Of a stretch of DNA of 64,000 nt, positions 30,001-33,000 are shown piece after piece. How positions within the stretch are numbered: the stretch's first letter is position 1; every line of letters begins with the position of its first letter. This DNA comes from Bdellovibrionales bacterium. GTDB taxonomy: Bacteria > Bdellovibrionota > Bdellovibrionia > Bdellovibrionales > JAUICD01. The stretch spans positions 2,503,811-2,567,810 of the forward strand of contig OZ241865.1 of NCBI GenBank assembly GCA_965203275.1. The letters are read 5' to 3'. Position numbers: made by a program.

Positions 30001-33000
30001 ACTTGAACTCTTCCATTTTAAATCTGACGGATCACAAATAAAAACAGTCCATCCCCAATATTCAAAAAGAGCTTTATAATAATGAAATTCAAAATAAGCT
30101 TTTTGAGTTTGAGGATCATTATCTAAAATAGCTATATTGATATGATCTCTTGGATTGATTCCAAATCTTCTCATCTCTTCACAAATAGCATTTTTAAAAA
30201 ACTTGTGACCATCATAATCATATTCAAATAAATAAAAAGGCAAAGCATTTTGATGCTGCTGGTTGAGAATACCAATGATCATAGCAAAAGAAGCATTCGT
30301 ATTGATTTCAATAAGCTTTACTTTATCCTCCTCCTCCATAATATGAAAATCATAACACATTAAAATAGAATAATGGCCAGGGTCATAATTGATGGAAGAT
30401 TGTTTTTTTACATATTTTTGATAAGAAAGATTCTCTCTTAAATTCCAAAATGTTTTGATCACTTGATGACATGTTTTAAAAACTTGCTTGTCTAAAGAAA
30501 TAATATTTTTAAAAAATAATTCCTTCTCAATAGGGTAAGACTTAAAAGTCTCTTGCCAAAAAGGATATTTTTGACTGATAAATTTTTTAAGACAATCAAG
30601 TTGCAATTGTTTAAGCTTTGCCAAGTAATACTCTTTTCATTGTTATCTTCGTGAATAAGAACGCAAAAGACTTGCACTTATAAAATGATTTGTTTTGCAA
30701 GAGCGACGTCTATGAACTTGCCTGCGTGTTTCTTCTTCAATAGAAGATGACAGCTTTGCTTTCAATCTTACAATAGCTTGAGCATGCAATTGAGACACTC
30801 TACTTTCGGTGATACGTAAGACCCGACCAATTTCTTTTAAATTGAGATCTTCATAATAATACAGAGATAAAATAATTTTATGTTTCTCAGGTAAACTATT
30901 AATAGAATCCATAATAATATCTTTAACAACTTTTATTTGTAGTTCATTAAATGGGTTATCTATTTTAAAATCTTCTAGAAAACCTAACATAGATTTTTTA
31001 TCTATACTACTAAAAGTTGTTTGATTATCAAAAGATAAGATACTGACAGGACATACTTGGTAGACAAGATCATGAAATTCATCCATAGATAAGCCTAATT
31101 TATCTGCTGCTTCTTGGTCTGTGGCATCTCTGCCTAAATCATTTTTGAGTTGGGAAAAAGTCTTCTCTAAAAGTTTAGCTTTGTCTCTAATACTACGAGG
31201 AACCCAATCTTGATTTCTTAACTCATCTAAGATAGCCCCTCGGATACGAAACTCAGCATACGTTTTAAATGTATTGTCTCGAGATGGATCATATTTTTCT
31301 ATTGCATCCATTAAACCAATAGCACCGCTTGCAATAAGATCGTCTAATTCAATGTTAGATGGTAATCTCATAGAAATCTTATAAGCAATAAACTTAATAA
31401 GTGGTGCATATTCCATGATGAGCTTATCTTTTTGATTGCTGGTCAGTTGTTGTGGATTTTCTTTATACCTTTTTAATAATGTAGATGCTTTTGTTTTAGA
31501 TGACATACATTCCCCTCCTGTCATTTTATTAAATTTTAATAACTCTAAATATTATGTTATCAAACTAAAGAATCTCAAAAAAGATCATTTTTTTCGTGCC
31601 AACTTTTTGTTTTATAGAAAAATTTTTTTTTCTATAAAGTGTCTACACTTTTAACGTCAATGTTTTTAACACTCCCATGAAAAAGAAAATGATTTAAAGC
31701 TTCTTTAATATTTTCTTTCAAAATATATTTTTGTTTAATTTGTGATACTTGTTTGTATGTCATATCAGATAAAACAACAGCTATTAGATCCTTTATATAT
31801 GGTTTTTGGTCTTTAATAATATTTAAACTGTTCGTATTTTTGACATTTTCTAATACCAATTGGATTGAGATTTTAGTCAGGATATTGTTGTGATCGTTAT
31901 GAGATAAAATGAAGAAATTTTCTAAAAATGTCACCTGTTGCTTTTGTGCTTTCGTAGGTATTTGTGGATGATCAAAAGTTAATATTTGTTGGCTGATCTG
32001 TTTGACCAAAGCAAGAGTTTTTTGTCTATCTGATATGATGATCTTTTGAAGAGAATTTAAATACTTTGAAAATAAATTAAAGAACATTAAGGTCACCAGG
32101 AATAAAATCAACAAAAAGCACTTTGTTGAAGAAAGTTTGGTGACATAAGTTTTTTTGTCAAAATATTGTACAGTGCTTTTATATAAGATAATATTTCCCT
32201 TTCGTCTCAATAGATCTGTCTTTATGTTTTAAAATGAATGTTGTAAATACTTCTGTTAAATATATAAGCAAATAAGATACCAACCAGACATTTTACTTAA
32301 GTAAAATAATAAATGATCCGATATATTTGAAATAACAACACTGTTTTTAAAAAAAATGATAAATAGAAGGTGTCAAAAATTCTTTAAATGCCTAGTATAA
32401 AGGGGAGGGATTGTATTGGTTTTTTGACATGTCTTATATAAGTGTTTTACAAGTCTAAATCTAAAAAAATTATAACTCTATATAATGACTTTTTAGGGAT
32501 TTTTTTGGTTATGAGCCTTATTTATAGAATTGAAATATTAGCAGTGTGAGTGTAAAATAAATATTAAGTCCTTATGTATGTAAAAAATAAGGGAGAGGAT
32601 ATTTTTATGATTTCAAAAAAACAATTAGGTCATTTTAAGTTACATATTATTCAGGCTATTAAATGGACAACAATGAGCTTTGCTTGTCTTATGACATTCT
32701 CCTTAGGTATCTTTTTAGGAAAACAATTTAGTGATTCTCAAAAACAAAGTGATACATCTTTGGTGCAGTCTTTGCAAAATCAAAACATTCCCAATGTCAT
32801 AGCCGAAGATCAAAATCCTCAAAAGGTTTCTATGAAATTAACAGAAGATACAGAAAATAATAAAAAAGAAATTTCTCTTGTACAAGACTCAAAAGAAGCA
32901 CAAGAACGTACGTTAGCTGGAGACACTTCTCAAGTACAACACCCCACAGAAAAGCATTCTACAGAAGAACATCTCGCAGAAAAACACCCCACAGAAGAAC

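Follow-up and report, generated by a model that had tools for sequence, protein, structure and literature searches.

The window analysed here is a 64,000-nt stretch of contig OZ241865.1 from a Bdellovibrionales bacterium (genome G000, assembled as one contig), which we compared within a set of 61 genomes that includes the sister genome G001. It contains the gene for the sigma factor FliA (sigma-28), surrounded by the following features, given in window positions:

30643..31506, minus strand: fliA, encoding sigma-28 (287 aa; TIGR02479, 256.9 bits versus a cut-off of 189.6)
31554..31564, minus strand: conserved element of fliA's own promoter, TTTGATAACAT, the same 11-mer as in Bdellovibrio bacteriovorus HD100
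31632..32210, minus strand: fliL remnant (Pfam FliL, 35 bits versus 24.6; start codon uncertain)
32297..32323, plus strand: exact sigma-28 site, 251 nt upstream of the SPOR-domain gene
32574..33590, plus strand: SPOR-domain gene, the predicted target of that site and a conserved operon neighbour

The profile match bears out the genome-wide survey's note, which had called FliA intact in this genome. The 11-mer directly before fliA recurs in HD100 immediately upstream of the mapped fliA start site, a start that is marked there as not FliA-type (PMC3627812). In the flagellated relatives G002, G009 and G040, a full fliL...flhA-flhF-flhG-fliA operon (gene names assigned from gene order and sequence) occupies the space between the same two neighbour genes as in G000. 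Because ten flagellar genes separate fliL from fliA in these relatives, the fliL-fliA pair of G000 is, judging from this comparison of gene order, the remnant of that operon after an internal deletion. In the two promoter-reading stretches of the protein, which we take to be regions 2.4 and 4.2, G000 is identical to the consensus drawn from 32 rows of flagellated relatives. Overall, G000 departs from it in 17 of 147 consensus columns, compared to 0–4 for flagellated rows. A loss of FlgM-contact residues was considered and rejected, as the changes near region 4.1 are confounded by long branches, and a sigma-54 site before fliA was set aside after only a half match was found. Sigma-54 itself is kept, as are the pilus ATPases.

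Flagellin was found in 53 of the 61 genomes. The eight genomes in which it was not found (G000, G001, G003, G004, G007, G011, G021 and G022) span four families, each with flagellated members too. Searches of G000 for FlhA, rod proteins and CheW found none of them, 19 local profiles made from relatives' flagellar operons all gave no match at E < 0.05, and FlgM was found neither by Pfam, nor by a 17-sequence local profile, nor by a 6-sequence alignment. We describe the flagellar genes and FlgM as 'not found' because G000 is 90.4% complete. The survey's note had stated that the flagellum and the chemotaxis genes were gone. The first part stands for flagellin, FlhA, FlgM and the rod proteins, but fliL remains just upstream of fliA; for the second, CheW was also not found in G002, a flagellated member of the family.

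FlhA was not found in any of the five flagellin-less genomes tested. FliA, said to be kept in such genomes, is intact in six of the eight but split in one (G004) and not found in another (G022, 91% complete). FlgM was detected in 51 of the 53 flagellated genomes; among the flagellin-less ones it was not found in G000, G001, G003, G004 and G021 but scored over the cut-off in G007, G011 and G022, so that the proposed lack of anti-sigma control is not supported in that form. On the FliA tree the flagellin-less label requires four changes (bootstrap 3–4), of which well-supported branches force just one; the case for repeated flagellar loss therefore comes mainly from the family labels. A literature search on non-motile Bdellovibrionota turned up nothing on this group.

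The FliA proteins of flagellin-less genomes evolve faster and form long branches. Together with the split and the unfound copy, this is compatible with FliA and its sites being a decaying relic of the flagellar era, an explanation to which we give hardly any credence: the promoter-reading regions are unchanged, the fliA promoter element is kept and the sites described below are sharply spaced, intergenic and recently copied.

The exact motif TWAAG-N15/16-CCGATA occurs at 45 sites in G000 (36 of them N16), compared to 5 for the reversed motif and 0–7 at every other spacer from 8 to 25. By our own gene calls (1,980 genes), all 45 are intergenic versus 20 of 47 wrong-spacer sites, and 37 aim into a gene within 450 nt, which gives 36 target genes; the totals of 45 and 37 agree with those reported previously. 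The sites form 23 sequence clusters, the largest with 15 members. Allowing one mismatch at N16, 85 sites aim into a gene within 450 nt, compared to a median of 10 at wrong spacers (10–14 and 18–23). The N16 count is the highest of the 61 genomes (36 versus at most 22). These sequence counts support a large, non-random set of FliA promoters. As the survey's note had recognized, the motif that is enriched before genes in G000 is that of the attack-phase FliA consensus of HD100, given as TTAAG-N16-CCGATA in the available passages of PMC3627812. The sister genome carries 27 exact sites (10 N16 and 17 N15), the total noted earlier; 13 of the 27 lie within invertible segments, and 12 of these 13 are directed away from the neighbouring gene. 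At N16, the flagellin-less genomes apart from G000 contain 1–10 sites versus 0.4–2 per wrong spacer, with G021 at background (1 versus 1.2).

The earlier interpretation was that an orphan FliA, freed of its anti-sigma factor, has had its regulon redirected as a whole to genes for ankyrin proteins, adhesins, pili and CRISPR, as part of a two-phase life cycle with a host- or prey-contact phase. The 45 intergenic exact sites, the top-ranking N16 count and the failure to find FlgM in G000 speak for this interpretation, as does one pilus-related target in the window:

55936..55962, plus strand: exact sigma-28 site, 42 nt before the TadE/G-like gene
56004..58199, plus strand: TadE/G-like gene, 731 aa (Pfam Tad and TadE)

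This site is exact in G000, has two mismatches in G001 and finds a comparable counterpart at 1 of 28 orthologous loci from outside the genus; it appears from these comparisons to be new, with the reservation that the gene may be inside an operon in the other loci. For adhesin and pilus genes in general, the idea of rewiring is not supported in the form proposed. In the start-site table of HD100 (PMC3627812 Table S2), FliA sites already precede the genes of TadC, of cell-surface-anchor and haemagglutinin-like proteins, of FliL and ClpP and of ribosome-associated protein Y. Searches by blastp identified a Ser/Thr kinase whose gene has a sigma-28 site in two flagellin-less genomes, G000 and G007, and in the flagellated G040, and a target (g1829) shared by G000 and G007. 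G040 also has a site before an FQNC lipoprotein, and only 5 of the 22 G040/G007 targets tested have a homolog in G000. The G000 regulon is mostly of the ancestral kind, its surface and Tad targets included. Housekeeping genes, previously said not to be targets, are represented by near-consensus sites before Rho, EF-G, ClpP, HPF and a PPIase, some of which may be chance (ClpP and HPF were matched to HD100 targets by name only).

Ankyrin genes make up 11 of the 36 strict targets, which is a strong enrichment per gene (p = 4e-6), but the signal comes from two clusters and the enrichment put forward earlier is gone once copies of a promoter are counted as one (2 of 17 clusters, p = 0.28; 4 of 54, p = 0.42). 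No sigma-28 site precedes 87 of the 100 ankyrin genes in G000. The enrichment of FxNC-motif lipoproteins survives collapsing (10 of 54 clusters, p = 7e-8; 19 of 29 genes with a site), and these proteins are a robust target class of the regulon. G000 (~100 genes), G001, G003 and G011 are rich in ankyrin genes, in contrast to G002 and G007, a wealth that may reflect association with a eukaryotic host.

The type V CRISPR locus contains three sigma-28-like sites, and two of their three targets are broken, which undercuts the claim of rewiring to CRISPR genes. The cas12a gene behind one site covers only model positions 327–1287, with the first 326 missing, and the second promoter precedes a cas4 fragment (2–70 of 178) joined to a cas1 fragment (103–316 of 317). 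The third site, TTTAG-N15-CCGATA (a one-mismatch N15), stands before an intact 1,325-aa neighbour gene and is a point for rewiring. With mostly ancestral targets, a collapsed ankyrin signal, broken cas genes, FlgM in three of the eight flagellin-less genomes and the motif of G021 at background, we consider wholesale rewiring quite improbable. As a separate observation, the regions upstream of solitary CRISPR repeats look sigma-70-like by eye, as opposed to the idea of sigma-28 control.

The clearest rewiring in G000, which the survey's note does not mention, is the set of putatively invertible sigma-28 promoters at pilin and lipoprotein genes. Twenty identical one-mismatch sigma-28 sites are all located in one dispersed element, a copy of which lies in the window:

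39561..39584, no strand: distal recombinase-type site of the switch, with inverted arms around an 8-bp asymmetric spacer
39661..39687, minus strand: sigma-28-type switch promoter TAAAG-N16-ACGATA inside the invertible segment, OFF (aiming away from the pilins)
39905..39928, no strand: gene-side recombinase-type site, its spacer inverted relative to the distal site
40015..40299, plus strand: truncated pilA-like ORF, 94 aa, the first gene behind the switch
40196..40903, plus strand: pilA-like type IV pilin, 235 aa, with a prepilin motif (44% to the ON pilin)
40929..41636, plus strand: second pilA-like type IV pilin, 235 aa

Across G000 there are 51 recombinase-type sites, TGTRACTT-8-AAGTYACA, with one asymmetric spacer throughout; 44 of them form 22 inverted pairs, 344–346 bp apart, and 7 are solo. 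All 44 paired sites have the exact core and the single spacer, the inner segments are at least 88% alike (median 94%) and every pair encloses a sigma-28-type promoter, 76–78 nt from one site. In 20 of the 22 switches, this promoter has ACGATA, one mismatch from the consensus and present at HD100 start sites marked as FliA sites (PMC3627812 Table S2). Nineteen switches stand beside pilA-like genes, two beside FxNC lipoproteins and one beside repeats only, without a gene. Only two are ON: one of the 19 pilin switches (contig position 1721696, at a three-pilin cluster) and one of the two lipoprotein switches (contig position 1793013). The remaining 20 of 22 are directed away from the gene-side flank, and both flanks of both ON copies are swapped relative to these 20. 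We looked inside the invertible segment for a sigma-70 promoter facing the pilin and found none.

The sister genome has 40 such sites, including 18 pairs that lie 135–136 bp apart and enclose T[TC]AAG-N15-CCGATA. Eight of these switches serve pilins (one ON), eight serve FQNC lipoproteins and two are of other kinds (0 of the 10 non-pilin switches ON), and an extra pair 6.1 kb apart has one promoter, with a pilin outside each site. Only these two genomes, which are kin, carry the switch system: we counted 0–2 recombinase-type sites in the other 59 relatives and 0–3 in 300 other genomes of the class, the metagenome collection contained no exact match to the site pattern and paired matches in the species-genome collection came from G001 only. 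PilA-like matches number 36 in G000, 20 in G001 and 0–7 in the others of the 61 genomes, and the pilin paralogs have a median pairwise identity of 38%. No good sigma-28 site was found at the single pilA of flagellated G040 or at that of G002, which has what we take to be a sigma-54-like site.

The switch segment occurs in both orientations between the same flanks, as seen among paralogous loci. In G001, the inner segments of loci L171 (ON) and L174 (OFF) are identical at 111 of 111 positions, only as reverse complements, while the flanks outside the switch match directly (938 of 1,007 bases on the gene side, 94 of the first 100 distal bases), which places the crossover in the sites. Many near-identical dispersed copies, the 7 solo sites and a genome full of selfish repeats might also be explained by a short mobile element, non-autonomous and bounded by terminal inverted repeats, that has a promoter inside and lands either way. 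However, the flanks are common to the loci and stay with the gene while the inside alone turns, no target duplication was seen, and the promoter bracketed by inverted sites lies next to one of a few kinds of surface gene in 21 of 22 copies in G000 and 18 of 18 in G001. Furthermore, the inner sequences of the two genomes differ in length and have only the sites in common in a DNA search. A mobile element is therefore a very unlikely source of the pattern.

A further possibility is that the switches flipped once and are now frozen, so that the OFF pilins form an archive, silent or in decay, and the ON copies are fixed expression loci. Between switch and gene, hairpin-repeat motifs occur at 13 of the 18 OFF pilin loci in G000, and both ON gaps are free of them; because these repeats may block read-through, many OFF pilin loci may be dead. 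The truncated first ORF of the window copy, the existence of decayed locked copies and the ancestral site missing beside the recombinase gene of G000 (see below) point the same way. Against this, the core and spacer of the paired sites are uniform, the recombinase is intact and 18 of the 19 switch-linked first pilin frames are open for 202–237 codons, and the identical inner segments of L171 and L174 indicate that their inversion was recent. Frozen switches therefore seem unlikely to us. Pilin expression is not one-at-a-time, as there are also pilins with a fixed promoter, which in two cases sits in a decayed switch that is locked facing the gene. We saw no single locus in both orientations. 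Contigs of four runs on the ON pilin switch break at repeats and mix paralogs, and the one strand-change joint in them is explained by paralogs and hairpin repeats.

Two tyrosine recombinases are encoded in G000: one is XerD-like (307 aa), and the other (187 aa, contig position 2047789) consists of the catalytic domain only. The latter is single copy in 51 of the 61 genomes, has an invariant catalytic R-K-H-R-H-Y in 10 of 10 sequences, is intact in G000 and weakly matches NCBIfam invertase models (35–39 bits versus cut-offs of 221–222). Upstream of the gene for this small recombinase, 18 of 27 loci have a similar site with the same arms and another spacer, and 0 have one downstream; the spacer part of this site score was derived from the same loci and is partly circular, but arms-only scoring picks mostly the same places. 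G001 has a site just downstream of the gene, and in G000 no site lies within 1.5 kb of it. Given this association between site and gene, the 187-aa protein is the likely invertase of the switches, with the XerD-like protein as a second candidate. What we take to be an IHF-like motif abuts many of the sites, and three HU/IHF-family genes are present. The sites were also considered as canonical chromosomal dif and rejected, since there are 51 copies and their sequence is unlike the listed dif of HD100; the GC skew of G000 shows no clear terminus. HD100 Bd2025 has the same size as the 187-aa recombinase and lies 12 kb from the predicted dif (PMC2731167, PMC11318664); size, annotation and a location in mid-chromosome are the grounds on which we connect the two proteins.

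The explanation we think probable combines an orphan FliA with invertible sigma-28 promoters that were copied to pilin and lipoprotein genes on top of an ancestral attack-phase regulon. It builds on features read directly from the DNA: the switch architecture, the two orientations among paralogous loci, the pilin expansion and the link between site and recombinase gene in relatives. In this order, FliA would already have been the sigma factor with overall command of the surface of free attack-phase cells, which would account for its survival when the flagellar operon was deleted from inside and fliL, fliA and fliA's promoter were left. In one phase, fliA would be made from this ancestral promoter and drive the surface programme; as FlgM was not found, control probably passes to fliA's own promoter. 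Within this genus, a sigma-28 promoter would then have come between two inverted tyrosine recombinase sites, and the switch would have been copied along with pilA-like and FxNC-motif lipoprotein genes to ~20 dispersed loci. Site-to-site recombination, presumably reversible at a given locus and probably carried out by the 187-aa enzyme, would turn the promoter, read by FliA, toward the gene (ON) or away from it (OFF). Because the recombinase would set promoter direction, most pilin paralogs would be silent and few expressed in each FliA-phase cell. The switches would thus be a likely means of varying the cell surface, and the benefit may be escape from phages or host recognition, or altered adhesion.

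A bolder version, which we regard as possible rather than probable, is that a Bd2025-like, terminus-linked small tyrosine recombinase, widespread in the Bdellovibrionales, and its single cognate site were co-opted in this genus as a genome-wide pilin selector under the attack-phase sigma factor, with exchange between loci and about one switch-borne pilin of 19 (8 in G001) expressed at a time. Because the spacer is the same in all 51 sites of G000, sites at different loci may recombine with each other too, which would move the ON promoter between pilins and scramble the chromosome.

Several parts of the probable explanation, the orphan FliA with copied invertible promoters, are already known: sigma-28 without a flagellum (Chlamydia), a broad FliA regulon (HD100) and invertible surface promoters (fimS, Mpi and Moraxella). 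The comparisons below draw on the available passages of the papers cited. The attack-phase regulon of HD100 resembles that of G000 in its consensus, its surface, Tad, kinase, ClpP and ribosome-hibernation targets and its fliA promoter element (PMC3627812), whereas G000 differs in that no flagellum or FlgM was found, in its many ankyrin genes and in the pilA-like expansion behind invertible promoters. For the HD100 pilA, Bd1290, the start-site table has no start site (PMC3627812 Table S2), and its level is ~10-fold higher in a condition that we take to be attack phase (PMC3627812). Chlamydia trachomatis also has sigma-28 without a flagellum, serving a developmental stage, but with a two-gene regulon compared to tens of promoters and DNA inversions in G000 (PMC10597470).

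Bacteroides fragilis Mpi is likewise one unlinked recombinase acting on dispersed surface promoters with a locked-ON copy, but it is a serine recombinase serving 7–13 capsule loci (PMC10403206); in G000 and G001 we find a candidate tyrosine recombinase, 18–22 loci, paralogous pilins and an alternative sigma factor. The FimB/FimE switch fimS of Escherichia coli shares the ~300-bp invertible pilus promoter and a small tyrosine recombinase, yet comprises one locus with adjacent recombinases, as opposed to many loci, an unlinked candidate enzyme and palindromic 10-8-10 sites in G000 (PMC5763102, PMC11868660). In Moraxella bovis, inversion selects a type IV pilin, much as in the 6.1-kb segment of G001, although there the pilin genes invert, whereas in G000 and G001 it is mostly the promoter alone that turns, at many loci (PMC11868660). 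The predicted dif/XerCD system of B. bacteriovorus has a 28-bp palindromic site of the tyrosine-recombinase type, as do the switches, which have another sequence and 40–51 copies (PMC2731167, PMC11318664). In the Bdellovibrio lineage, our literature search found no description of pilin phase variation by inversion or of such switches; the available text of PMC2797640 speculates on invertible promoters from the induced invertase Bd0039.

That fliA was kept by flagellin-less genomes from four families favours the view that FliA is foremost a regulator of the life cycle, and the presence of FlgM in G007 and G011 without an export gate raises the question of how FlgM is released there. If the proposed explanation is true, the Bdellovibrio lineage would have pilin phase variation by DNA inversion, a stochastic switch would be tied to a sigma factor of the life cycle, and a testable role would emerge for Bd2025, a so far unstudied recombinase from a predator that serves as a tractable model.

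FlgM genes were found in three relatives in which flagellin was not found:

L045:7245-7493, FlgM gene of G007
L046:6757-7101, FlgM gene of G011
L047:6715-7020, FlgM gene of G022

FlhA was not found in two of these FlgM-bearing genomes, G007 and G011. In G007, csrA-fliW adjoin the FlgM gene, and flhF-flhG are retained ahead of fliA. Another flagellin-less relative, G004, has a fliA broken across two frames (L051:7382-8029), reflecting either a sequencing error or early decay. Elsewhere, the window holds a gene of a family that recurs in G000, the genome under study:

28817-29311, (-) strand, small membrane/coiled-coil gene whose product carries tandem repeats of 11 residues

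A CRISPR locus lies in G000 and a Cas9-like gene in its sister genome, G001:

L062:301-9506, type V CRISPR locus of G000
L048:9920-14854, Cas9-like gene of G001 (1,644 aa), two genes downstream of fliA

In the type V locus, cas12a has lost its 5' end, whereas the 1,325-aa gene, which matches no NCBIfam model, is intact; fused fragments of cas4 and cas1, a cas2 gene, a short array and three sigma-28-like sites are also present. No sigma-28 site was found ahead of the Cas9-like gene. Solitary CRISPR repeats stand back to back with each of three exact sigma-28 sites in G000 (contig positions):

1166539, (-) strand
1744283, (-) strand
1883866, (-) strand

All three sites are followed by the same 11-mer, and for at least two a hairpin resembling a terminator lies no more than about 70 nt downstream; the three are candidate promoters of FliA-driven small RNAs.

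In the whole G000 genome, a single full-length Xer-type recombinase was detected, and XerC may be absent. In three complete genomes, the small, Bd2025-like recombinase gene sits close to the middle of the chromosome. One 28-bp palindromic site, conserved across Bdellovibrionales, lies 150-510 nt upstream of this gene (loci L134-L161) and is putatively either an operator or a second terminus site.

Five solo recombination sites in G000 (contig positions) are separated by some 130-180 nt from gene starts in one secreted ankyrin family, whose promoters appear sigma-70-like by eye:

contig 469349
contig 1693229
contig 1755288
contig 1905100
contig 1982021

These sites are possible partners for long-range inversions; whole-genome GC skew in G000 is irregular and flat.

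Variants of the proposed invertible promoter switch were found beside pilin genes:

L170:1528-7673, 6.1-kb segment of G001 bounded by two inverted sites
L273, contig about 342160, decayed switch copy of G000
L274, contig about 1477950, decayed switch copy of G000

The inverted sites of the 6.1-kb segment have a third spacer type and enclose one sigma-28-type promoter, with one pilin gene outside each end, an arrangement that we consider a candidate either-or pilin switch. Both decayed copies lack intact sites and direct their promoter toward a pilin gene; they are locked-ON derivatives.
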